From an uncultured Gemmatimonadaceae bacterium (lineage in GTDB: Bacteria > Gemmatimonadota > Gemmatimonadetes > Gemmatimonadales > GWC2-71-9): a stretch of 64,000 nt of DNA. Where the stretch lies: NCBI GenBank assembly GCA_964596925.1, contig CAZQWQ010000040.1:65469-129468 (forward strand), in the 5' to 3' direction. This document shows positions 10,922 through 59,193 of the stretch, in pieces. The first letter of the stretch is position 1, and each line of letters opens with the position of its first letter. The notes beneath the pieces were generated by a model, which saw only the letters and a list, made by a program, of their open reading frames with translations, did no database searches and was not told the origin of the DNA. A program made the position numbers and the translations under genes.

Positions 10922-11302
10922 TCAGGTCGCTGCGTCCCCCGGCAGCACGGCGCGCACGACTTCCAGCAGCTCGTCCTTGGCGAACGGCTTGCTCAGGGTG
11001 CGAGTCGCGCCCAACGCCGCGGCGACCGCGTTCAAGTCACCGGGGCCGGCGCGGAGGCCGCCGGACATGGTGATGATCTTGACCGCCGGCCATTCGCGAC
11101 GCAGGCGCCGGATGGTGGCGATTCCGTCCTGGCCCGGCATGTAGATGTCGGTCAGCACCAGGTCCACCGCTGCGTCGCGCATCAGCCGAATCCCCGCCTC
11201 GCCCTCGCCCGCTTCGAGCACCTCGTACCCGGCGCGCTCGAGGATGCGGCGCGCGACCCCGCGGATAGCCGCGTCGTCATCGATCAGCAGAATGCGTTGC
11301 AC
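10922..11302 (-). CDS. Single-domain response regulator (CheY-like receiver)
   Basis: GTG at 11302 is preceded by GAGGGGGAC and lies 8 nt after the upstream stop. Receiver motifs ILLIDDD...LVLTDIYMPGQDG...KIITMSG...LSKPF. Confidence 0.85.
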   Translation of the reverse strand: MQRILLIDDDAAIRGVARRILERAGYEVLEAGEGEAGIRLMRDAAVDLVLTDIYMPGQDGIATIRRLRREWPAVKIITMSGGLRAGPGDLNAVAAALGATRTLSKPFAKDELLEVVRAVLPGDAAT

Positions 11303-20411: not shown

Positions 20412-22217
20412 CTATGGCACCGGTTTCTCGGCGAACCGGGCAACGCGCGGCAGGATGGCGTGGAATACGCTGCCCACGCCGTACGTGCTCTGGGCGCCCA
20501 CCCGGCCGCCCTGAGCTTCCACGATCCGCTTGGTCAGGGCCAACCCAAGGCCGGTACCGGGGTATTGCTTGGCGGAACTCGCGTCGAGCTGCTGGAACTC
20601 GACGAACAACCGGCCCATGTCCTCCGGCCGTATCCCGATCCCATTGTCCTGCACCTCGATGCGAAATGCATCCACGCCTTCGGGAAGTACGCGGATGACG
20701 ATGCGCCCCCCGTCGTGAGAGAACTTGACCGCGTTCGACACGTAGTTATGCAGCACCTGCTTCAGCTTTCCGGGATCGGCAATGATGTCCACGATATCCG
20801 GAGCCTGCGCGATCTCGATTACGAGGTGTTTCTGTTCGGCGAGCGTGCGCACGGTGTCCTGGACATCCACAATCACGGAGGCGAGGCGCACCGGCTCCGG
20901 GCGGAGCTCCAGTTTTCCCGCGTCGAGGTTCGAGAGGTCCAACACGTCGTTGAGGATTTGGAGCAGGTTTCGAGCGGCGGTGAGGATGTCGCGCAGGAAC
21001 TCCTGCTGACGCGGCGAGATGGGGCCCGCCTTGCCGTCGTGCATCAGCTCCGCGAACCCGATGATCGCGTTGAATGGGGTGCGCAGCTCGTGCGACATGT
21101 TGGCGACGAACTCGCTCTTCAGGCGGTGCGCCGCCTCGAGCTCGACAACCTGGCGCTTGAGCTGTGCGTTCAGGACGTCGATTTCGTTGCGGGCGCGCTC
21201 CCGCTCAGTCACATCCTCGAACGTGGCGACGGCGAGTGACAGTTGGCCGTTGCTCCCGTATACAGGCGCCGCCCACACATCGAGTGGGATTACTCGATCC
21301 GGAGCGCGGATCTCGATGTCAGTAACGTGGACTCGCTCGCCCCGCATGGCGCGAGCGACCGGGAGGCGCTCGGCGGGATATAGGGTGTCAGTGCCGCACA
21401 CATACACCTGGTAGATCTCGGGTAGCTCGCCGATGGCGGCCCCGGGGGCGAGGCCCTTGCCGAGGATCTGCTGACTCGCCTGGTTGGCGGCGTACGCTCG
21501 CCCCGCATGGTCGACCACAAAAACTCCTATGGGCATCTGTTCCAGTATATCGAGCGACTGCCGCTCGGACTCCTGGAGGCCCCGCACCGCGCGATTCCGG
21601 GCGGAGAGCCCCAGCCACAGGAGTGCTGCAGCGATCGTGAGCAACACGACCGTGAGCGCGCTACTGGCGACGATAACGGCCTTTGTCCGGCGGGCAGCGG
21701 CAACGATGCGCGTTGAATGAACGTCTCGGGCACTGATGAGGGCGCTCTTGGCCGCCACCACCAGCGCGCGGATCTGGTCCATGAGATTTCTGCCACGGTC
21801 ACTGATCATCAGCTGGCGCGCGGTTTCCGCGTGTCCAGCCCGGCGGAGCTGGATCGTGGTGTCGAGCAAGACCAACTTCTCGGCGATCAACGGGGTGAGA
21901 CGCTGCATCGCGGTGGCGAGCGTGGTGTCACTCCCCGTTAATGCGCCCAGCGCTTTGGTATCTACATCTATGGCTGCAATAGCCGTTTGATACGGACCGA
22001 GGTAGCGCGATTCGCCGGTAACGAGGTAGCCCCGCTGCCCTGTCTCGGCATCCAGCAGATCCTTGAGCACCGCATCGAAGCGGAGCAAAGTGAGGTTCGC
22101 GCGGTTCCGGCTGGCGCTCTCTTCTTCAAGCTGGACAAGGCTTTGGTAGGACAGGGCACCCACGAGGATCAGGGCACCGAGCGCGGCAGCGAAGACGCCG
22201 ATGAGCGGGGCGACCAC
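20412..22217 (-). CDS. CHASE3-PAS sensor histidine kinase
   Basis: N-terminal TM helix followed by a CHASE3-like signature (ETGQRGYLVTGESRYLGPY), a second TM helix and a PAS region. H-box FVANMSHELRTPFNAI plus HATPase motifs. The kinase core is a close paralog of the 15554-18010 core. Confidence 0.9.
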   Translation of the reverse strand: MVAPLIGVFAAALGALILVGALSYQSLVQLEEESASRNRANLTLLRFDAVLKDLLDAETGQRGYLVTGESRYLGPYQTAIAAIDVDTKALGALTGSDTTLATAMQRLTPLIAEKLVLLDTTIQLRRAGHAETARQLMISDRGRNLMDQIRALVVAAKSALISARDVHSTRIVAAARRTKAVIVASSALTVVLLTIAAALLWLGLSARNRAVRGLQESERQSLDILEQMPIGVFVVDHAGRAYAANQASQQILGKGLAPGAAIGELPEIYQVYVCGTDTLYPAERLPVARAMRGERVHVTDIEIRAPDRVIPLDVWAAPVYGSNGQLSLAVATFEDVTERERARNEIDVLNAQLKRQVVELEAAHRLKSEFVANMSHELRTPFNAIIGFAELMHDGKAGPISPRQQEFLRDILTAARNLLQILNDVLDLSNLDAGKLELRPEPVRLASVIVDVQDTVRTLAEQKHLVIEIAQAPDIVDIIADPGKLKQVLHNYVSNAVKFSHDGGRIVIRVLPEGVDAFRIEVQDNGIGIRPEDMGRLFVEFQQLDASSAKQYPGTGLGLALTKRIVEAQGGRVGAQSTYGVGSVFHAILPRVARFAEKPVP

Positions 22218-22323
22218 TGAGCGGTGCAGAGGGGGACTCCACTTCGGGAAAAGGCGAGCACATCATTGCCCCCGTGCTCACGATTGCGCAAGGGTTTGTC
22301 CGGAGCCGATATTGGCCGGAGCC

Positions 22324-23448
22324 ATGATAGCGCACACGGAGCATCACGGCGGGACCATTTTGGTCTTCCTGTTCCTGGCCTCCGCCTGCACCGGCGACGA
22401 GGGGCCACAAACGGGCGCACGCCTCGTGCTCTCGCCGCCATGGACGTCCATCCCCGTCGGCGACCCGCTCATTGGTGACACGGTACGGGCTGCATTCGTC
22501 AACGAAGCGGGCGTTCAACTCCCCGCGAATGCGGTCGCCTGGACGAGTAGCGACACCAGCGTGGCGCGGATCGACGCGACGGGCCTGGTCCAGGCCGTGC
22601 GCGTCGGCGTCGTCACGATCCGGGGGACCGCTGATGACGACGTCGCCGACCAGCCGATCACGGTCACCGACCCTGTCCTGGTCGGCACCGGCGACATCGG
22701 GACCTGCCTGTCCACCAACGACGAAGCCACCGCCTTGCTGCTCGACAGCCTCGCCGGTATGGTGTTCACCGCCGGCGACAACGACTATTCGGACGCGACC
22801 CCCGCACCGGCGTACGGTGTCTGCTTCGATTCGACCTGGGGGCGTCATCTCCCGCGCATTCGCCCCACACCGGGTGAGGATGATCGGCGCAATAACACGC
22901 TCGACGACTATTTCGATTATTTCGGGGCAGCGGCGCACCCCCCCGCCGGCTACTACAGTTACGATCTCGGCGCCTGGCATGTGGTGGTGCTCAACGCCAC
23001 GCCCGCGGTCGACGCTACTCAGCTGAGCTGGCTCATCGCCGACCTCGCGGCCAATCCCGCGCTGTGCACGGTGGCGATCGCGCATCGACCCCGCTTCAGC
23101 TCCGGCAACGCCGGTAGTGCGGCAACACAGGGAGCGGTTTTCCAGGCGCTGTACGATGCTGGGGTGGAGCTCCTAGTGTCCGGCAACGATCATGACTACG
23201 AGCGCTTCGCACCCCAAGCCCCCGATCAGACTCCCGACCCCGACAGCGGGGTGGTGCAGTTCGTGGTGGGGACCGGCGGCAAGAGTCATGGTGGCATCAA
23301 CCTGCCGCTGGAGCTGAACAGCGTCGCGCAGAACGACGATACCTACGGCGTGCTGCGGCTCGTGTTCCATCTGACGAGCTACGATTGGCGCTTTTTCCCC
23401 GTCCGCGGGCGCACCTTCACCGACACGGGCAGCGCGGACTGCCACTAG
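22324..23448 (+). CDS. Secreted Ig-like (Big_2-like) domain + calcineurin-like metallophosphoesterase
   Basis: I chose the ATG at 22324 (MIAHTEHHGGTILVFLFLASAC, lipoprotein-like). The Big_2-like segment is WTSSDTSVARIDATGLVQAVRVGVVTI. Phosphoesterase motifs are GDIG, AGDNDY, GNDHDYER and VVGTGG. Confidence 0.75.
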   Translation: MIAHTEHHGGTILVFLFLASACTGDEGPQTGARLVLSPPWTSIPVGDPLIGDTVRAAFVNEAGVQLPANAVAWTSSDTSVARIDATGLVQAVRVGVVTIRGTADDDVADQPITVTDPVLVGTGDIGTCLSTNDEATALLLDSLAGMVFTAGDNDYSDATPAPAYGVCFDSTWGRHLPRIRPTPGEDDRRNNTLDDYFDYFGAAAHPPAGYYSYDLGAWHVVVLNATPAVDATQLSWLIADLAANPALCTVAIAHRPRFSSGNAGSAATQGAVFQALYDAGVELLVSGNDHDYERFAPQAPDQTPDPDSGVVQFVVGTGGKSHGGINLPLELNSVAQNDDTYGVLRLVFHLTSYDWRFFPVRGRTFTDTGSADCH

Positions 23449-23516
23449 GGTCCCAGGCGAAAACGCCCCGGTGCTCTACACGAGCCCGAGGCGTCATGTG
23501 CTGAAACCGACTGCAC

Positions 23517-23570
23517 GGGTTTTCCCTACGTTTCTACCTCGACGATTTTCTCCCTACGTGTTTTTCTTGC
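23517..23570. repeat. Half-copy of the same unit family next to the tRNA-Ile 3' end
   Basis: Three tandem pyrimidine-rich units, GGGTTTTCCCTACG, TTTCTACCTCGACG and ATTTTCTCCCTACG, followed by TGTTTTTCTTGC. No matching purine-rich arm was found nearby. Confidence 0.5.
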
Positions 23571-23577
23571 AGCGGAG

Positions 23578-23651
<74 letters not shown>

Positions 23652-42420: not shown

Positions 42421-42502
42421 CAGTTGTCAGTTGTCAGTCGTCACCGGGCCGGGAAGCCACCAACGCCCCTCAGGCAGCCTGACGACTGAGAACTGACGAC
42501 TG
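42421..42502. repeat. 23-bp inverted repeat built from heptad units, rho-lepA intergenic region
   Basis: The left arm is CAGTTGTCAGTTGTCAGTCGTCA (42421-42443). The right arm is TGACGACTGAGAACTGACGACTG (42480-42502). The reverse complement of the right arm matches the left arm at 21/23 positions, with one mismatch that would be a G.U wobble in RNA. The spacer is 36 nt and GC-rich. Each arm is about three 7-nt repeats (CAGTTGT/CAGTCGT). Confidence 0.75.
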
Positions 42503-42522: not shown

Positions 42523-44314
<1,792 letters not shown>

Positions 44315-44322
<8 letters not shown>

Positions 44323-53588: not shown

Positions 53589-54284
53589 GTGATCAAGTTC
53601 ACGAACGTCTTCAAGACGTACGCGAAGGGCGGCCTCGCACTCAAGGATGTGTCTTTCCACATCGCGAAGGGCGAGTTCGCCTTCCTGACCGGACACTCGG
53701 GCGCCGGCAAGTCCACCGTCTTGAAACTGGTCTACGCCGACGAGCGCCCCTCGAGCGGCGAGGTCCGGGTGTCGGGCTACAGCGTGGCCGACCTGACGCC
53801 CCGGGATGTCCCACACCTGCGGCGGCGGCTGGGGATCGTGTTCCAGGATTTCCGCCTGCTCGAGGATCGCACGGCCGAGGAGAACGTGGCGTTCGCGCTG
53901 GAGGTGACGGGTGCGCGGCGCTCCGCCATCCCGGCTCGGGTGATGCGCGTGCTCACGCAGGTGGGGCTCGCCGCCAAGGCAGGAGCCTACCCACGCGAAT
54001 TGTCGGGCGGCGAGCAACAGCGGGTCGCCATCGCGCGCGCGCTCGTGAATGAGCCCCAGGTATTGCTGGCCGACGAGCCGACCGGGAATTTGGATGAGCG
54101 CGCGACGCGCGGAGTGTTCCAGTTGTTGCGTGATATCAACGCGAGCGGCACGGCGGTCGTGATGGCGACTCACGATCTCGAGATGGTGCGCTCCGCCCCG
54201 TATCGGGTGATCGAACTTCAGGAAGGAGCCGTGGTGTACGACTCGGCGGTGGACGAACCCACAGTCGGGGACGCGCAGGCATGA
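53589..54284 (+). CDS. ftsE: Cell-division ABC ATPase FtsE
   Basis: Motifs GHSGAGKST, LSGGEQQRVAIARAL and LLADEPTGNLD. Followed by ftsX with an ATGA overlap. Confidence 0.93.
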   Translation: MIKFTNVFKTYAKGGLALKDVSFHIAKGEFAFLTGHSGAGKSTVLKLVYADERPSSGEVRVSGYSVADLTPRDVPHLRRRLGIVFQDFRLLEDRTAEENVAFALEVTGARRSAIPARVMRVLTQVGLAAKAGAYPRELSGGEQQRVAIARALVNEPQVLLADEPTGNLDERATRGVFQLLRDINASGTAVVMATHDLEMVRSAPYRVIELQEGAVVYDSAVDEPTVGDAQA

Positions 54285-55138
54285 CCCTCACCGTGCGCGA
54301 AGCGCTGCTGGCCTTCCGCCGGGCGCCGCTTCTGTCGGCGCTCTCCGTCACCACGATCGCGTTCTCGTTGTTCGTGCTGGGCCTGTTCGGGCTCGTCGCC
54401 GTCAACCTGCGCCAGGCGTTGCGCGGCGTGGCCGAGCGGGTCGAAATCGTCGCGTATCTGTTGCCCGGGACTCCGATCGAGACCGTGCTGCTGGGCGAGC
54501 AGGATATCGAGGCGTTTCCCGAGGTCGCCGCCGCGGTCCATATCTCCGAGGACAGCGCCCTGGCCCGTGCCCGGCGAGAGCTGGTCGAGTTCCGCGACCT
54601 GTTGCGCGAGCTCGAGCGGAATCCCCTGCCGGCGTCGATCGAGGTGAAGCTCAAGCCCGGGTTTCAGGACGCGACACACGTAAACGCCGTGGCCGAACGG
54701 CTGAGGGGCTTCGGGTTCGTCGACGACGTGCGCTTCGGTCGAGACTGGGTGGAGAAACTCGACAAGCTGCGGCGCCTTGCCGCGGCCGTGGGCGTGGTGG
54801 TCGGCGCGGCGTTCGCGACGGTGGCCGTGATCATCATCGGCACGACGATTCGCATGGCGGTGCTGCAACGCAGCCGCGAGATCGCCATCATGCGGCTGGT
54901 GGGGGCGACTGACGGGTTTATCCGGCGCCCATTTCTGCTCCAGGGCGCCCTCAAAGGGCTGCTCGGCGGCCTCGTGGCGATCGCCCTTTCCTACGCGGCC
55001 TACGCCCTCATCAACCGGTTTCTCATCGAATCGTCTTTCTTCACGGTGGCCCAGGCGCTGGGGATCGTGGTGTTCGGGACGGTGATTGGCCTCATGGGAA
55101 GTCTCCTGAGCGTCGGCCGGCATCTCAAACGAGTGTAA
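54281..55138 (+). CDS. ftsX: Cell-division permease-like protein FtsX
   Basis: An N-terminal TM helix, a periplasmic loop, and the C-terminal FtsX 3-TM domain (IAIMRLVGATDGFIRRPF). Confidence 0.9.
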   Translation: MTLTVREALLAFRRAPLLSALSVTTIAFSLFVLGLFGLVAVNLRQALRGVAERVEIVAYLLPGTPIETVLLGEQDIEAFPEVAAAVHISEDSALARARRELVEFRDLLRELERNPLPASIEVKLKPGFQDATHVNAVAERLRGFGFVDDVRFGRDWVEKLDKLRRLAAAVGVVVGAAFATVAVIIIGTTIRMAVLQRSREIAIMRLVGATDGFIRRPFLLQGALKGLLGGLVAIALSYAAYALINRFLIESSFFTVAQALGIVVFGTVIGLMGSLLSVGRHLKRV

Positions 55139-55300
55139 CGACGTACTTCGAACGAGAGTAAGAACGCATGGAAAAGACGTATGGGGAGAAAGACGTAGGG
55201 AGAAGGCGTAGCGGCACGCGTCGCTCTTACATACGCCTTTTCCTTACGCTTCTTCCCCCTACGGTTCTTCCTTACGTCTTTTGCCTTCCGCTTTTCGCCC
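55139..55300. repeat. Low-GC palindromic short-unit repeat element, copy A (ftsX / envC-like junction)
   Basis: The left arm has 13-16-nt purine-rich units (ACGCATGGAAAAG, ACGTATGGGGAGAAAG, ACGTAGGGAGAAGG, CGTAGCGG). The centre is ACGCGT at 55216-55221. The right arm has complementary pyrimidine-rich units (CCTTTTCCTTACG, CTTCTTCCCCCTACG, GTTCTTCCTTACG, TCTTTTGCCTTCCG). The two arms can pair as a long imperfect hairpin. Confidence 0.7.
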
Positions 55301-56424
55301 AACGTCCCAATATCGAACAGCAAATGCGGGACAACCAGCAACGCCTGGAGAATATCCGGCGGGAGCGGACCCAGGCGCAGCAGGACCTGGAGCGGCTGCG
55401 CGCACAGGTGCACAATCTCGCCGACGAGCTCTCCAACCTGGAGCGGCAGCGCGAAACCACCAACCGCATTGTGAACGAGCTGGACCGCCAGATCGTCCAG
55501 TTGTCCGATGGGATCGACCAGATCACGGTGGACCTGATCCTCGCCCAGGACGCGTTGGAGGAAAAGCGTGCCGTGCTGGAACGACGGCTGGTGGATATCT
55601 ACAAACGTGGGGCCCTGTACGCCTACCAGGTGCTGCTCGCCGCGGAGAGTTTCGGCGATTTGTTGTCCCGCTACAAGTATCTCTATCTCGTGAGCCGGCA
55701 AGACCGTCAGCTGACCAATGAAATGGACCGGTTGCGCGACCGCATCGCGCAGGAGCGACGCGGGCTGGTGGGAGCGCGCGATGCGCTCGAGCGTCGCCGC
55801 GGCGAGCGCTCCGAGGAGCTGCAGCATTTCATGGACCTGGCGCGGCGACGCGAAACCAGCCTGCGCGAAACGCGGCGCAGCGTCGCGCGCGTCCAGGAGC
55901 GGCTGACCGCCGCGGACGCCGAGGAACGACGCGTGGGCGACGCGATTGCGGCACTCGAGCGCTCGCGGCGCGACGCCGAAGCCCGCGGGATCGTGTCTGG
56001 AGCCGGCACCATCTCCCACGAGAACCTCGGCACACTCGACTGGCCGGTGGACGGCCGGATCGTGTACCAGTTCGGGCCCACGGCCGGCCCAGACAACACG
56101 CGGATCACCTGGCACGGGATCGGCATTGCCGCGGCGCCGGGCACGCCGGTGACGGCGGTCGCGCCGGGGACGGTGGCGCTGGTGGGGCCGCTCGGCACCT
56201 ACCTCACGACCGTGATTCTCGATCACGGTGGCGGGTTCTATACCGTGTACGCCACCCTGAGAGACGCCGCCGTCGCGAAGGGTGAGCGGGTGGGGCGCGG
56301 GCATGTCATCGGCCACGTGGGCGGAGGCGCCAGCGACCACGGCCCCCACCTGCACTTCGAGATCAGGGGACCGGGGCAGATCGCTCTGGATCCGGCGAAC
56401 TGGCTGAGGCCACGGCAGCGATAA
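55168..56424 (+). CDS. EnvC-like coiled-coil M23 peptidoglycan metalloendopeptidase/activator
   Basis: Long coiled coil plus a C-terminal M23 domain (HGIGIAA..GTPV.AVA.G.V..........ILDHGGGFYTVYA......HLHFEIR). It lies directly after ftsEX, as envC does. The start is uncertain: ATG 55168 lies inside a low-GC repeat element, and the next in-frame ATG is 55324. Confidence 0.85.
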   Translation: MEKTYGEKDVGRRRSGTRRSYIRLFLTLLPPTVLPYVFCLPLFAQRPNIEQQMRDNQQRLENIRRERTQAQQDLERLRAQVHNLADELSNLERQRETTNRIVNELDRQIVQLSDGIDQITVDLILAQDALEEKRAVLERRLVDIYKRGALYAYQVLLAAESFGDLLSRYKYLYLVSRQDRQLTNEMDRLRDRIAQERRGLVGARDALERRRGERSEELQHFMDLARRRETSLRETRRSVARVQERLTAADAEERRVGDAIAALERSRRDAEARGIVSGAGTISHENLGTLDWPVDGRIVYQFGPTAGPDNTRITWHGIGIAAAPGTPVTAVAPGTVALVGPLGTYLTTVILDHGGGFYTVYATLRDAAVAKGERVGRGHVIGHVGGGASDHGPHLHFEIRGPGQIALDPANWLRPRQR

Positions 56425-57353
56425 TGGGACGACGTATGGAAAGAGACGTGGGAAAACAGCGTAGGGATATGCGTAGCTACGTTTTTTCCCTACGCCGTTC
56501 TCCCCTTACGTTTTTTCCTTACGCCTTTTGTCTGGTCGCCTGCCCCTCCCAACCCACTTCTCTGCGACTCGCCGGCACGGTAGAAATCCGCGAGCTCCGT
56601 CTGGCCTCGCTGGCAGCCGGCCGAATCGCGCGGCTGCTCAAGGACGAGGGCGACTCGGTGCGCCGCGGCGACACGATCGCGCTGCTCGAGCAACCCGGCC
56701 TGGCGGCGTTGATCGGCCAGCGGCGCGCGCAGGCGCAAAGCGCCGAGCGCCGCACGGCCGAGGTCACTGCCGCGCTGGCGGACAGTGCGAGGGCGGCGAA
56801 CGACCTCGCACGAGCCGGCCGCCTCCGTGAGCAGGGAATCATCGCTCCCCAGCAGTACGACAATCTAGTAGGCGCCGCGACGGCCGCCGCCGCCCGGCTG
56901 CGGGCCGTCCGCTCCGCGGGTAGCGACGCGCGAGCCGCCGCGCAGGGGCTCGCCGTCACCGAGGCGATCCGCGACGAGCTGGTGCTCATCGCTCCCGCGG
57001 ACGGCGTCATCCTCACACGCTACCTCGAGGCGGGGGAGGCGGCCGCGGTGGGAACGCCGATTGTATCGCTCGGTGTCGTGTCGCAACCCTGGGTGCGCGC
57101 TTACGTCGGCGAGCCGTTCATCGCGCGGCTGCGCCCTGGGCAGACGGTGGCAATCCGTGCCGACGGGGTGGCGACGCCGATCGCCGGCCGGGTCATCGAG
57201 ATCGCGTCGCGCGCCGAGTTCACGCCGCGCGCGGCGCTCACCGAGCGCGAGCGCGCCGACCTCGTGTTCGGTATCAAGGTGGCGTTCGACGACCCGGCGG
57301 GTCGCCTCAAGGCGGGGTTGCCGGTCACACTCGAGGTCCCGCTCTCGCCGTGA
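56424..57353 (+). CDS. HlyD-family membrane-fusion/periplasmic adaptor protein (YbhG-like)
   Basis: Barrel-sandwich and hairpin regions (GTVEIRELRLAS..GRI..LLKDEGDSVRRGDTIALL; PADGVILTR; FTPRAALTERERADLVFGIKV). ATG 56424 overlaps the envC-like stop (TAATG). An alternative ATG at 56469 would give a lipoprotein signal ...FCLVAC. Confidence 0.85.
   Translation: MGRRMERDVGKQRRDMRSYVFSLRRSPLTFFPYAFCLVACPSQPTSLRLAGTVEIRELRLASLAAGRIARLLKDEGDSVRRGDTIALLEQPGLAALIGQRRAQAQSAERRTAEVTAALADSARAANDLARAGRLREQGIIAPQQYDNLVGAATAAAARLRAVRSAGSDARAAAQGLAVTEAIRDELVLIAPADGVILTRYLEAGEAAAVGTPIVSLGVVSQPWVRAYVGEPFIARLRPGQTVAIRADGVATPIAGRVIEIASRAEFTPRAALTERERADLVFGIKVAFDDPAGRLKAGLPVTLEVPLSP
56427..56535. repeat. Low-GC palindromic short-unit repeat element, copy B (envC-like / hlyD junction)
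   Basis: Left-arm units are ACGTATGGAAAGAG, ACGTGGGAAAACAG and CGTAGGGATATG. The centre is a perfect palindrome CGTAGCTACG (56472-56481). Right-arm units are TTTTTTCCCTACG, CCGTTCTCCCCTTACG, TTTTTTCCTTACG and CCTTTTGTC. The architecture matches copy A. Confidence 0.7.
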
Positions 57354-58084
57354 CCGACGTCGCGGTCGACATCCGCGAGCTCACGCGCCGGTTCGGCGCC
57401 CTCACCGCCGTTTCCCAGCTCACACTCCAGATCGCCCGTGGGGAGGTGTTCGGCCTGCTCGGACCGAACGGCTCCGGAAAGACGACGACCATCCGCATGC
57501 TGTGCGGCCTGCTTGATCCCACGTCCGGTGGCGCGACGGTGGCCGGCATCGACGTCAGTACCGCGCCCGAGCGGGTCAAGACGCAGATCGGCTACATGTC
57601 CCAGCGGTTCGGGCTATACGAGGACCTTACGGTCGCCGAGAATCTCCAGTTCTACGGCGGGATCTACGGATTGCGCGGCGCCGCGCAGGCGACACGCCTG
57701 GCGGAGCTTGTGGCATTCCTCGGGCTCGGGAGCCGGATGCACCAGCTCGCCGCCCAGCTGTCCGGCGGATGGAAGCAGCGCCTGGCGCTGGGGTGCGCGT
57801 TGCTGCACCAGCCGCCGGTGCTCTTCCTCGACGAGCCGACCGCCGGGGTCGACCCCGCGGCGCGGCGCAGTTTCTGGAGCGCGATCCATGACCTCGCGCG
57901 CCGCGGCACGACGGTGCTCGTGACGACGCACTACATGGACGAGGCGGAACGGTGCGACCGCCTGGCGATGATGAGCCTCGGGCACCTCATCGCCCTCGGG
58001 TCGCCGGCGGAAGTCGCGCAGCAGGTCGGGGGCAAAACGCTCGAGGACGCGTTCGTCATTCTGCAGGAGCGCGACGAGCGATGA
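57350..58084 (+). CDS. ABC transporter ATP-binding protein (ABC-2 exporter type)
   Basis: Motifs GPNGSGKTT, LSGGWKQRLALGCAL and LFLDEPTAGVDP. The GTG start forms a GTGA overlap. Confidence 0.92.
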   Translation: MTDVAVDIRELTRRFGALTAVSQLTLQIARGEVFGLLGPNGSGKTTTIRMLCGLLDPTSGGATVAGIDVSTAPERVKTQIGYMSQRFGLYEDLTVAENLQFYGGIYGLRGAAQATRLAELVAFLGLGSRMHQLAAQLSGGWKQRLALGCALLHQPPVLFLDEPTAGVDPAARRSFWSAIHDLARRGTTVLVTTHYMDEAERCDRLAMMSLGHLIALGSPAEVAQQVGGKTLEDAFVILQERDER

Positions 58085-59193
58085 TGACGCGGCTCTGGCC
58101 GATGGTGCGCAAGGAATTCCTCCAGATGCGCCGCGACCGCCTCACCCTGGGATTGATGTTCGGCGTCCCCGTCGCCCAGCTCCTCATGTTCGGGTTCGCG
58201 ATTCAGACGGACGTCCGGCATATCCCCACCGTGGTCGTGGACGAATCCCGCACGCCCGCCAGCCGTGACATCATTGCCGCGCTCGAGAATACGGGAAACT
58301 TCCGCGTCGTGGCACACGTGGACGGCCGCCCGGCGCTCGATGCCGCGTTCGCCGGGGGGGACGCCCAGGCGGGCATCGTGATCCCCAATGACTACTCGCG
58401 AAACGTTGGCCGCGGCACGACGGCCACGATCCAGGTGATCGTGGATGCTTCGGACCCGCTCTCCTCGCAGTCGGCGCTCGCCGCCGCCGCGGGACTGGGC
58501 CAGGCGCGCAATCTGGCGATTCTCGCCGCCGCGGCCGGCCGCACGAGTCTGCCGATAGACGTCCGCATCCGTCCGCGCTACAACCCGGGGCTGCGAAGCC
58601 CCAACTACATCGTGCCCGGCCTGGTCGGACTCGTCCTGACGATGACCATGGTCCTGATCACCGCCATGGCAATCGTACGCGAGCGGGAGCGGGGCACGCT
58701 CGAGCAGCTCATCGTCACGCCGATCACCAAAACCGAACTGATGCTCGGGAAAATCGCGCCCTACATCGGCGTCGGGTTGTTCCAGATGTCCGCCGTCCTG
58801 ATCCTCGGCCGATTCGTCTTCGATGTCCCGTTCGTCGGGAGCCTGTGGCTCCTGTACGGCGTCAGTCTGGTGTTCATCGTGGTGAGCCTGAGCCTTGGCC
58901 TGTACATCTCGGCGCTTGTTCAGACGCAGCAGCAGGCGATCCAGCTGAGCTTCTTTTTCATGCTCCCAAGCATCCTGCTCTCGGGGTTCATGTTCCCGCG
59001 CCAGGCGATGCCCGAGTTTTTCCAGTGGTTGGGATTGTTGTTGCCGATCACGCCGTTCCTGGAAGTCCTGCGGGGCATCCTCCTCAAGGGTGTGGGTCTC
59101 GAAGCCCTCTGGCCGCAGACGCTGTTGCTGGCCGGCTTCGCAGTGGGGCTGATCACGCTGGCCGTGCGGCGGTTTCACAAGACGCTGGACTAA
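58081..59193 (+). CDS. ABC-2 type transporter permease (YbhS/YbhR-like)
   Basis: ATG at 58081 forms an ATGA overlap. N-terminal TM helix, large periplasmic loop, then five or six TM helices (IVRERERGTLEQL). Confidence 0.9.
   Translation: MMTRLWPMVRKEFLQMRRDRLTLGLMFGVPVAQLLMFGFAIQTDVRHIPTVVVDESRTPASRDIIAALENTGNFRVVAHVDGRPALDAAFAGGDAQAGIVIPNDYSRNVGRGTTATIQVIVDASDPLSSQSALAAAAGLGQARNLAILAAAAGRTSLPIDVRIRPRYNPGLRSPNYIVPGLVGLVLTMTMVLITAMAIVRERERGTLEQLIVTPITKTELMLGKIAPYIGVGLFQMSAVLILGRFVFDVPFVGSLWLLYGVSLVFIVVSLSLGLYISALVQTQQQAIQLSFFFMLPSILLSGFMFPRQAMPEFFQWLGLLLPITPFLEVLRGILLKGVGLEALWPQTLLLAGFAVGLITLAVRRFHKTLD

Follow-up and report, generated by a model that had tools for sequence, protein, structure and literature searches.

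Palindromic repeat elements at the ftsX–envC–hlyD junctions of Gemmatimonadales as predicted signal-peptide coding DNA

In the accessible part of their literature, repetitive extragenic palindromic (REP) sequences, bacterial interspersed mosaic elements (BIMEs), and REPINs—inverted REP doublets moved by REP-associated tyrosine transposases (RAYTs)—are elements of Enterobacteria and Pseudomonas. Rickettsia palindromic elements (RPEs) measure ~100 to 150 bp, and sit in frame within protein-coding genes, where their translation does not destroy the protein. In the opa genes of Neisseria, pyrimidine-rich, nontriplet CTCTT tandem repeats encode the hydrophobic core of a signal peptide, and the short tandemly repeated repetitive (STRR) sequences of cyanobacteria are tandem 7-nt units in noncoding DNA with a lineage-specific sequence. 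Coupling hairpins that sequester a start codon are likewise an established principle; the known stems are short (10–20 bp) and unique in sequence. Here, we analyze a stretch of 64,000 nt from an uncultured Gemmatimonadaceae bacterium—the window, by which we mean the whole stretch—that bears two copies, A and B, of a palindromic element at the ftsX–envC and envC–hlyD junctions of one operon. Both copies are predicted to be the signal-peptide-coding 5′ ends of the next open reading frames (ORFs), spanning the segment from the upstream stop codon to just before the cleavage site. None of the known systems compared here combines inverted arrays of short tandem units, coextension with a signal peptide, and a conserved position with turnover of the units; nor did we find, in the searchable literature, a description of palindromic repeats like these in Gemmatimonadetes or of REP elements that encode signal peptides.

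The features that carry this prediction are the following:

55139–55305, plus strand: copy A, an imperfect palindrome (sequence read, repeat-pair search, unit matches, RNA fold, hairpin scan)
56424–56535, plus strand: copy B, with an architecture like that of copy A (sequence read, repeat-pair search, unit matches, RNA fold)
54281–55138, plus strand: ftsX (ORF; Pfam FtsX and FtsX_ECD), whose stop codon TAA at 55136–55138 abuts the foot of copy A
55168–56424, plus strand: EnvC-like gene of 418 residues, coiled coil plus M23 peptidase domain (Pfam Peptidase_M23 at 2.6e-24, CC_PcsB)
55168–55299, plus strand: predicted signal peptide of the EnvC-like protein, wholly encoded by copy A (translation, sole in-frame start, conserved mature N terminus)
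56424–57353, plus strand: HlyD-family membrane-fusion/adaptor gene (Pfam HlyD_D23, HlyD_3)
56424–56543, plus strand: lipoprotein signal peptide predicted for the HlyD-family adaptor, with copy B as its coding DNA (translation, conserved Cys)

Copy A starts 1 nt past the ftsX stop codon, and the sole in-frame ATG, GTG, or TTG start of the EnvC-like ORF is the ATG at 55168, within the 5′ arm of this copy. The HlyD-like ORF starts with the ATG at 56424, at the foot of copy B, which overlaps the envC stop—TAATG at 56422–56426 holds stop and next start together. No other start, earlier or later, precedes the respective mature parts. A sequence-only reading of this DNA had described two copies of one unit–palindrome–unit architecture, each starting close to an upstream stop codon, and the present analysis confirms this description. 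Its placement of the copies as intercistronic, however, is in need of correction, the only envC start being inside copy A and the hlyD start at the foot of copy B; that the copies flank the envC-like gene is right as to position, but each of them is the 5′ end of a coding sequence.

The presequence of the EnvC-like protein reads MEKTYGEKDVGRRRSGTRRSYIR over the 5′ arm and the apex (n-region) and LFLTLLPPTVLPYVFCLPLFA over the 3′ arm (hydrophobic and c-regions), which gives a product N terminus MEKTYGEKDVGRRRSGTRRSYIRLFLTLLPPTVLPYVFCLPLFA↓QRPNIEQQMRDNQ with predicted cleavage at A44↓Q45 (A↓QRP; arrows mark cleavage sites). EnvC is periplasmic in Escherichia coli. As the coiled coil begins right after QRP, the export signal of an EnvC-type protein can come only from copy A. 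The adaptor begins with MGRRMERDVGKQRRDMRSYVFSLRRSPLTFFPYAFCLVA↓C and bears a lipobox LVAC, the codon of Cys40 being at 56541–56543. Checked against the rules for signal peptides, ..RRSYIR-LFLTLLPPTVLPYVFCLPLFA↓QRP and ..LRRSP-LTFFPYAFCLVA↓C show a charged n-region, a hydrophobic core, and a small residue at position −1 (with Leu at −3) or the lipobox cysteine. The peptides of copies A and B are 47% identical over 34 residues, and both copies are therefore read in the same register. A protein search with the 47-residue peptide of the element, for which three 5-residue words in common were required, yielded no other protein with an N terminus of this kind.

A palindromic repeat that lies in frame within an ORF and is compatible with translation recalls the RPEs—an analogy of kind, with no sequence relation. 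RPEs, however, occupy many internal sites of unrelated proteins, where they add surface loops, whereas the Gemmatimonadales element makes up a whole, predicted cleavable signal peptide, consists of tandem short units, and recurs at the same junction order-wide with different sequences. What it shares with the opa repeats is a signal-peptide region of pyrimidine-rich, nontriplet tandem units; those of opa are perfect, one-armed, and frameshifting, whereas the Gemmatimonadales units are imperfect, paired with a purine array, and of conserved frame.

The elements are ~100 to 170 nt long and consist of purine-rich 13- to 16-nt units, a short center, and complementary units, with CGTA[AGT]GG as the unit core in the clade of the window. 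In copy A, the purine arm (~55160–55215) holds the units CGCATGGAAAAGA, CGTATGGGGAGAAAGA, CGTAGGGAGAAGG, and CGTAGCGG, the center is the palindrome ACGCGT (55216–55221), and the pyrimidine arm (~55226–55300) holds five to six units that each end in ..CC[ACT]TACG. A repeat-pair search returned direct repeats at 15/13/13-nt spacing in the 3′ half of this copy and six inverted-repeat pairs that link its halves. Copy B has a purine arm of CGTATGGAAAGAGA, CGTGGGAAAACAG, and CGTAGGGATATG (56429–56471), the palindrome CGTAGCTACG as its center (56472–56481), and a pyrimidine arm from ~56482 to 56535; one arm pair of 18 nt is 89% complementary. In the repeat-pair search, the units are 65 to 91% alike. 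Aligned as DNA, copies A and B match each other as well as their own reverse complements and have invariant CGTA and TACG cores in common. The consensus ACGTAKGGRARAAR, with at most two mismatches, has nine matches in the window against 1.21 expected from shuffles (0 of 100 shuffles reach nine), and all nine are confined to three sites, namely copy A, copy B, and a one-armed array:

23510–23565, minus strand: one-armed array of three units of the A/B family, ACGTAGGGAGAAAAT, CGTCGAGGTAGAAA, and CGTAGGGAAAACC (consensus matches at 23518–23559)

This array is noncoding and lies directly 3′ of tRNA-Ile(GAT) at 23577–23651, between this tRNA gene and the end of a Big_2-domain ORF (22201–23448); no complementary arm was found nearby.

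Two further traits that had been noticed from the letters hold up. The copies are AT-rich, with a GC (guanine plus cytosine) content of 0.52 to 0.55 inside them against 0.61 to 0.80 in their surroundings, and they fold into hairpins of −72.6 kcal/mol (copy A, z −6.0) and −51.8 kcal/mol (copy B, z −5.7), with 0 of 200 shuffles as stable in either case. The hairpin score of copy A, 63, is the highest in the window in an inverted-repeat scan. Palindromes were detected with an einverted-style dynamic program, the null being calibrated on block shuffles; self-BLAST for inverted repeats and 6-mer seed clustering were dropped, since elements were missed or GC-rich noise dominated, as was a looser inverted-repeat scoring, for which shuffles gave equal scores.

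Several other identities were considered. A clustered regularly interspaced short palindromic repeat (CRISPR) array had been dismissed from the start and is ruled out, as the units abut at 13- to 16-nt spacing without spacers and are followed by reverse-complement units. An assembly artifact is ruled out by the presence of the elements in many independent assemblies. Integron attC sites were rejected by inspection, with no convincing core-site pair and no cassette context. Rfam holds no family for copies A and B: tRNA alone passes the gathering threshold in the window, and a permissive threshold adds only subthreshold look-alikes of microRNA precursors, i.e., a generic long hairpin.

The element is not peculiar to this genome. 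A search with the EnvC-like protein returned 3487 homologs, some of them named EnvC or murein hydrolase activator, with named sources in Gemmatimonadales or Gemmatimonadetes. As relatives, we used 80 genomic loci (given by L numbers) from metagenome-assembled genomes (MAGs) of Gemmatimonadales and folded the 190 nt upstream of QRP. The mature N terminus QRP..QQMR.NQ is conserved in all orthologs, and the presequences are highly variable. Folds with z ≤ −3 occur at 42 of 73 ftsX–envC junctions, compared with 0 of 68 controls inside ftsX and 1 of 73 inside envC. In the calibrated inverted-repeat scan, 112 hairpins in 1.28 Mb score at least 50, compared with two in shuffles. In this comparison of orthologous junctions, which had been suggested as a check, a hairpin is retained at 56 of 78 ftsX–envC junctions—with both arms altered together between clades—and is present at 26 of 75 envC-stop junctions. 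Only two or three junctions per 20-kb locus bear hairpins, and these are the same junctions down to ~61% EnvC identity.

For 54 junction hairpins, geometry, reading frame, and hydropathy were determined. The ftsX stop codon lies at a median of −6.5 nt from the 5′ end of the hairpin, with an interquartile range from −14.5 to +2. In 53 of the 54, an in-frame start is found either upstream of the hairpin or in its 5′ portion, often as an ATGA or GTGA overlap with the stop. Past the 3′ end, the first mature codon, Q(RP), follows after a median of 21.5 nt. Thus, hairpin and signal-peptide coding segment are coextensive. In 52 of 54 lineages, no stop interrupts the EnvC frame along the 5′ arm, with the other two frames open in 25 and 33, which argues for translation of the whole hairpin. 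The peptide of the 5′ arm has a mean hydropathy of −1.57 and a net charge of +1.8 at a DNA purine fraction of 0.70; that of the 3′ arm has a mean hydropathy of +1.0 (above the 5′ arm in 53 of 54) and a net charge of +1.1 at a purine fraction of 0.29.

Constraint also acts on the nucleic acid itself. Eight lineages of the window clade, at 75–96% EnvC identity, have invariant CGTA..GG and CC..TACG cores and variable spacers; since the cores are spaced by 13 to 16 nt, which is not a multiple of three, protein selection cannot explain their invariance. Together with the noncoding copies described below, this rules out that the elements are just a signal peptide. Ordinary coding N termini at the orthologous junctions had been named beforehand as a sign against a repeat element—coding N termini they are, but they are nucleic acid elements as well, with cores at nontriplet spacing. 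The consensus structure retains the stem, and the compensatory changes that had been called for are present in 12 of 49 predicted pairs, which have changed on both sides with pairing kept, but four of these 12 lie outside the main stem. Furthermore, of 47 junction hairpins, 37 fold more stably in sense than in antisense (mean difference −4.7 kcal/mol, p = 1.5e-4), with 192 G–U pairs in sense and 129 in antisense, a folding advantage that is suggestive, if modest, evidence for selection on the mRNA level.

Non-window clades carry other units on both arms, i.e., the arms are replaced wholesale between clades, with dominant unit periods of 13 nt in 19 hairpins and of 7 nt in 14. The unit families by locus are:

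Window clade (L001–L008, L040): CGTAAGGAAGAA type
L009, L012–L014: CGTCGAGAAGAA
L048, L021, L023: CGTCGAGGAGAGG
L054, L061–L063, L067, L076–L079: CGTCACGCAGAG / CGTCGCGGAGAG
L080: ACGTGGAGGGAGA
L019, L025, L060, L065: GGGGAAG (7 nt)
L015, L017: GGGGACG (7 nt)
L073: GGGGAGC (7 nt)
L039, L077: ACGGGAA (7 nt)

Two junction hairpins of one genome have 10.4 8-mers in common, compared with 3.5 between genomes (p = 2e-6); L002, L015, L017, and L019, which bear different unit families at their two junctions, are exceptions. At L048, a near-perfect 104-nt hairpin of CGTCGAGGAGAGG units (11191–11294, score 115) directly follows the envC stop codon. This hairpin is noncoding—no hlyD gene comes after it in the contig and all three frames are closed—at a position that is coding in the window.

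Copies also occur away from the operon. Metagenomes were scanned for three consecutive window-type units, with counts limited to contigs of GC ≥0.6. Many of the matches listed are unrelated perfect tandem repeats of low-GC organisms; also among the matches listed are at least 49 imperfect arrays in at least 42 contigs within the GC limit, eight of them near an EnvC motif. Some short contigs are envC junctions themselves, so that arrays elsewhere are overcounted. Seventeen two-armed metagenome hairpins were inspected, several of which lie between convergent gene ends: the one at L143 separates convergent genes of an oxidoreductase and an S13 DD-carboxypeptidase (Pfam-confirmed), and the one at L195 touches the stop codons of both flanking ORFs, one of which has a Pfam match. 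At L102, L133, and L184, the hairpin lies just past a single gene end. Intergenic copies begin 0 to 20 nt past stop codons, and one-armed arrays exist in metagenome contigs besides the array at 23510–23565. Within ~190 kb of window-clade loci, arrays of the window unit type are found only at the two operon junctions; their density is low (three in the 64 kb of the window) and the operon association strong. With dispersed noncoding copies next to those at the junctions, copies A and B therefore appear to belong to a lineage-specific, dispersed family of soil Gemmatimonadales, similar to REP sequences or to MITEs (miniature inverted-repeat transposable elements) and here co-opted as signal-peptide coding DNA. 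Of the options in the sequence-only reading, this REP/MITE-like one is the best supported, given the same-unit copies at other loci, including those between convergent genes.

REP sequences and REPINs are, as far as the accessible literature describes them, likewise short, imperfect, dispersed palindromes of lineage-specific sequence that lie directly past stop codons, inside operons, and between convergent genes, whose inverted pairs yield ~100-nt hairpins, and which are inherited vertically at orthologous sites. Inverted pairs that form long hairpins, at z of about −6, are found here too. The units of the window clade contain GTAG or GTAA, similar to the conserved GTAG that this literature gives for REP sequences; GTAG, GTAA, or GTAT, however, occurs in every unit of the clade and not once at the hairpin foot, and the unit families of other clades lack it. 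Unlike a REP pair, each Gemmatimonadales arm is a tandem array of three to six short units, there are several unit families (7–8 nt, 13–16 nt) with rapid turnover and low density, and copies A and B are inside ORFs and translated. A tblastn search with an E. coli RAYT query found no RAYT gene in ~2 Mb of locus and contig DNA, a sample far too small to decide the matter. MITE was rejected as a class for copies A and B, the element being wholly a palindrome of tandem units, with no consistent flanking direct repeat at either copy and no insertion sequence seen.

We favor, at a probability of roughly 55%, the reading that the dispersed palindromic element serves as a translated presequence and, as an mRNA hairpin, couples downstream to upstream translation. 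A presequence is removed after export and might tolerate nearly any sequence of the right composition, which would make it a permissive site for a palindrome. The purine arm would encode an n-region rich in Lys, Arg, Glu, and Gly and the pyrimidine arm a hydrophobic region rich in Leu, Phe, Pro, and Ser; a purine-then-pyrimidine palindrome would give this charged-then-hydrophobic layout on either strand. In the operon mRNA, a hairpin of 100 to 170 nt would bury the start codon and the first ~40 codons, so that free ribosomes could hardly initiate. Initiation would rely on the ribosome arriving from the upstream gene, whose translation ends at the hairpin foot—at TAATG here and at ATGA or GTGA in many relatives. 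EnvC output would thereby be tied to the translation of FtsX, and adaptor output to that of EnvC. As REP elements are known to do, the hairpin may also protect the upstream mRNA end. In evolution, slippage, arm-to-arm correction, and replacement of unit families could bring about a fast turnover of unit number and sequence, with the position retained. The geometry is that of known coupling stems, with a start codon buried in the stem, an upstream gene that ends at its foot, and overlapping stop and start codons. Unlike these, the stems here are 40 to 90 bp long, consist of repeat units, and also occur at noncoupled sites, and coupling is a proposal drawn from geometry.

A number of observations weigh against this reading. 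Signal-peptide status was judged by sequence features and conservation, not by a trained predictor, and both coupling and mRNA protection are deduced from geometry. The excess of G–U pairs could be attributed instead to the arm composition that coding imposes. Copies between convergent genes cannot couple, so any coupling role would be a local co-option. About one-quarter of the lineages have no hairpin at the envC junction and bear short ordinary signal peptides there, for example, MKRLSLAVLLPVVLLSTPLLA↓QRP, and about two-thirds have none at the junction after envC. Even close relatives differ at the hlyD junction. A two-armed element is present in the window, L001, L003, L006, and L008. In L002 (92% EnvC identity), the lipoprotein signal, MRRLCLTVLLDAVVALPA↓C, is short and built from 3′-arm units of another family; the signal of L040 is plain and GC-rich; and L005, L007, L010, and L013 have pyrimidine units only. 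The adaptor Cys, followed by GTVEIRE ~10 residues on, is conserved in relatives with or without a hairpin. These differences show that elements expand, contract, lose an arm, and get replaced, and a hairpin that close relatives do without, or of which they keep only the pyrimidine arm, is dispensable. At copy A itself, the spacing of stop and start codons has changed by a duplication:

55125–55166, plus strand: tandem duplication (23 nt) that repeats the 3′ end of ftsX, stop codon included, TCAAACGAGTGTAACGACG / TCGAACGAGAGTAAGAACG (direct-repeat family, 79% identity; alignment with L001)

This duplication, GTGTAACGACG / GAGTAAGAACG, is absent from the closest relative, L001. It places the envC start 29 nt past the ftsX stop in the window, compared with 6 nt in L001, a gap that weakens simple termination–reinitiation at copy A.

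Much of this variation is also what a selfish or neutral mobile palindrome (REPIN- or MITE-like) would produce, which has no local function and survives only where it is harmless: in cleaved signal-peptide segments, at convergent gene ends, and after tRNA genes. Reuse of the same junctions would then mean that elements target hairpins already in place, or that newer unit families have overwritten old insertions. The copies in unrelated noncoding contexts, the presence or absence and the one- or two-armed state of the element at the hlyD junction of close relatives, the different unit families at two junctions of one genome (L002, L015, L017, L019), and the quarter of lineages without a hairpin all fit this explanation. 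Random insertion followed by filtering, however, would be expected to scatter more than to the same two or three junctions per 20-kb locus down to ~61% EnvC identity. Moreover, no transposase, no terminal inverted repeat around an internal region, and no target-site duplication were seen, and the sense-strand folding advantage hints at selection at the RNA level. We regard this as a possible explanation, if clearly the less probable one. A binding-site array is improbable. A protein that binds DNA or RNA in a sequence-specific manner (of the iteron-like or nucleoid-associated kind, or a regulator), reads CGTA[AGT]GG, and co-evolves with it might give genome-specific units, and would suit the invariant 4- to 7-nt cores at regular 13- to 16-nt spacing with free spacers in eight lineages, the units common to sites within a genome, and the one-armed arrays, for which pairing is evidently not always required. 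On the other side, no candidate protein was found, one genome can hold several unrelated unit families, the unit spacing is off the helical repeat, and arm complementarity is kept well outside the cores.

Two readings at the level of expression fare worse. Intergenic copies 0 to 20 nt past stop codons, some of them between convergent genes, sit where terminators sit, and the hairpin might pause or end transcription, or its C-rich, G-poor 3′ arm of five to six ~13-nt units (purine fraction 0.29) might be a Rho site that the purine arm masks; a 13-nt unit would correspond in size to the RNA site of one Rho subunit. Neither element, however, has a stem followed by a T run—the sole such site in 54900–56800 is 55741–55726 on the minus strand, outside both copies and no more than in shuffles—so that the attenuator, another option of the earlier reading, finds no support. 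The region is also translated and hence shielded from Rho, and the downstream genes are needed alongside ftsEX. A terminator, attenuator, or Rho-loading device is thus very unlikely. Least credible of all is a phase-variation locus, in which slippage of units in the signal-peptide region switches EnvC or the adaptor on and off, as with the opa CTCTT repeats. The units are indeed nontriplet (7, 8, or 13–16 nt), lie in the signal-peptide coding region, and vary in number between relatives, but slippage would be inefficient on units so imperfect (65–91% alike), the frame is intact in 52 of 54 lineages, and the loss of a core division factor seems unlikely to be tolerated in soil bacteria.

A broader and more speculative version goes beyond the translated and coupling presequence that we favor. 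Here, the hairpins would form an undescribed class of self-renewing elements in Gemmatimonadales, generated from a 7- to 8-nt or 13- to 16-nt unit and its reverse complement, reseeded or homogenized at the same few junctions order-wide—presumably by a trans factor that co-evolves with the unit—and acting as portable export-signal cassettes that give a signal peptide and coupling at once. We hold this version to be doubtful.

If copies A and B act as presequences, repeat element and protein-sorting signal would be one piece of DNA, in which the nucleic acid palindrome determines what peptide is made and can itself persist because the signal peptide is disposable. This would provide a concrete route for repeat elements to create or replace export signals, and it would explain the oddly long, low-GC, and poorly conserved N termini in these genomes, where it calls for caution with gene callers and signal-peptide predictors on MAGs. 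The fixed position with a lineage-specific unit, which also holds for the lepA leader (see below), points to a homogenizing mechanism as yet unknown or to selection on structure only. If it is true that the hairpins enforce coupling, they would set the FtsX:EnvC ratio of a cell-division machine.

On the plus strand, the genes run in the order Cys/Met pyridoxal phosphate enzyme, ftsE, ftsX, M23/EnvC-like gene, HlyD-family adaptor, ATP-binding cassette (ABC) ATPase, ABC-2 permease, and PCMT. The ATPase and the permease come next after the adaptor:

57350–58084, plus strand: ABC ATPase, followed by the ABC-2 permease, downstream of hlyD (Pfam ABC_tran, ABC2_membrane_3)

As listed, the permease ORF (57952–59193) overlaps the ATPase ORF by ~130 nt; its true start is probably further downstream, as the Pfam match begins at residue 49 to 66.

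Some of the one-armed arrays in metagenome contigs recur. At L101, L118, L157, and L171 (e.g., L171 2240–2274), one and the same junction has three purine units that form the C-terminal tail and the stop codon of an ORF, which ends in ..EQRRERAYGGKP, and the units close with TAAGGAGA, which leaves 8 nt to the ATG of the following gene; the unit thus supplies a stop codon and a Shine–Dalgarno-like sequence. A second recurrent one-armed site is found at L168, L186, L174, and L112. A unit that acts as a stop/Shine–Dalgarno/start module (TAA or TAG, GGAG, and ATG within CGTA[AGT]GG..) would fit the window clade only and is mentioned here as a note.

The window bears a further hairpin of short units in the rho–lepA intergenic region (42421–42502), upstream of lepA (42523–44322), which reads CAGTTGT CAGTTGT CAGTCGT, a 36-nt loop, and the reverse complement (91% complementary). 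Hairpins of 7- to 8-nt units occupy the corresponding place in at least nine relatives, upstream of a ~600-residue ORF taken as lepA by position and length. The hairpin is framed by the conserved feet GGAAGATA ... TATATTCC, and its heptamers differ by lineage: GCCGTCA, GGTGTCA, GGGGTCA, CAGACGT, GGTGCTA, GCTATCG, and CCGTCAT. The CAGACGT/CAGACAT family of this leader is also found at the hlyD junction of L030. By description, the tandem heptamers of the lepA leader and of some envC junctions are like STRR sequences, which, unlike them, have not been described as obligate inverted pairs or as signal-peptide coding.

The EnvC presequences (window 55168–55299 and proteins P0001–P0120) are long, with a median of 31 and a maximum of 52 residues. 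An RR pair occurs in 63 of 108 of them, often as x-R-R-x-hydrophobic-hydrophobic before the core (TRRSYIRLFL, FTRRLLLTILL, VARRLCVTSL), a pattern that loosely resembles the twin-arginine (Tat) motif. The largest hairpin seen lies at the ftsX–envC junction of L036 (9730–9962), measures 233 nt at a score of 173, and has six to seven ~16-nt units of the ACGGCGTAAAGAGCG type per arm.

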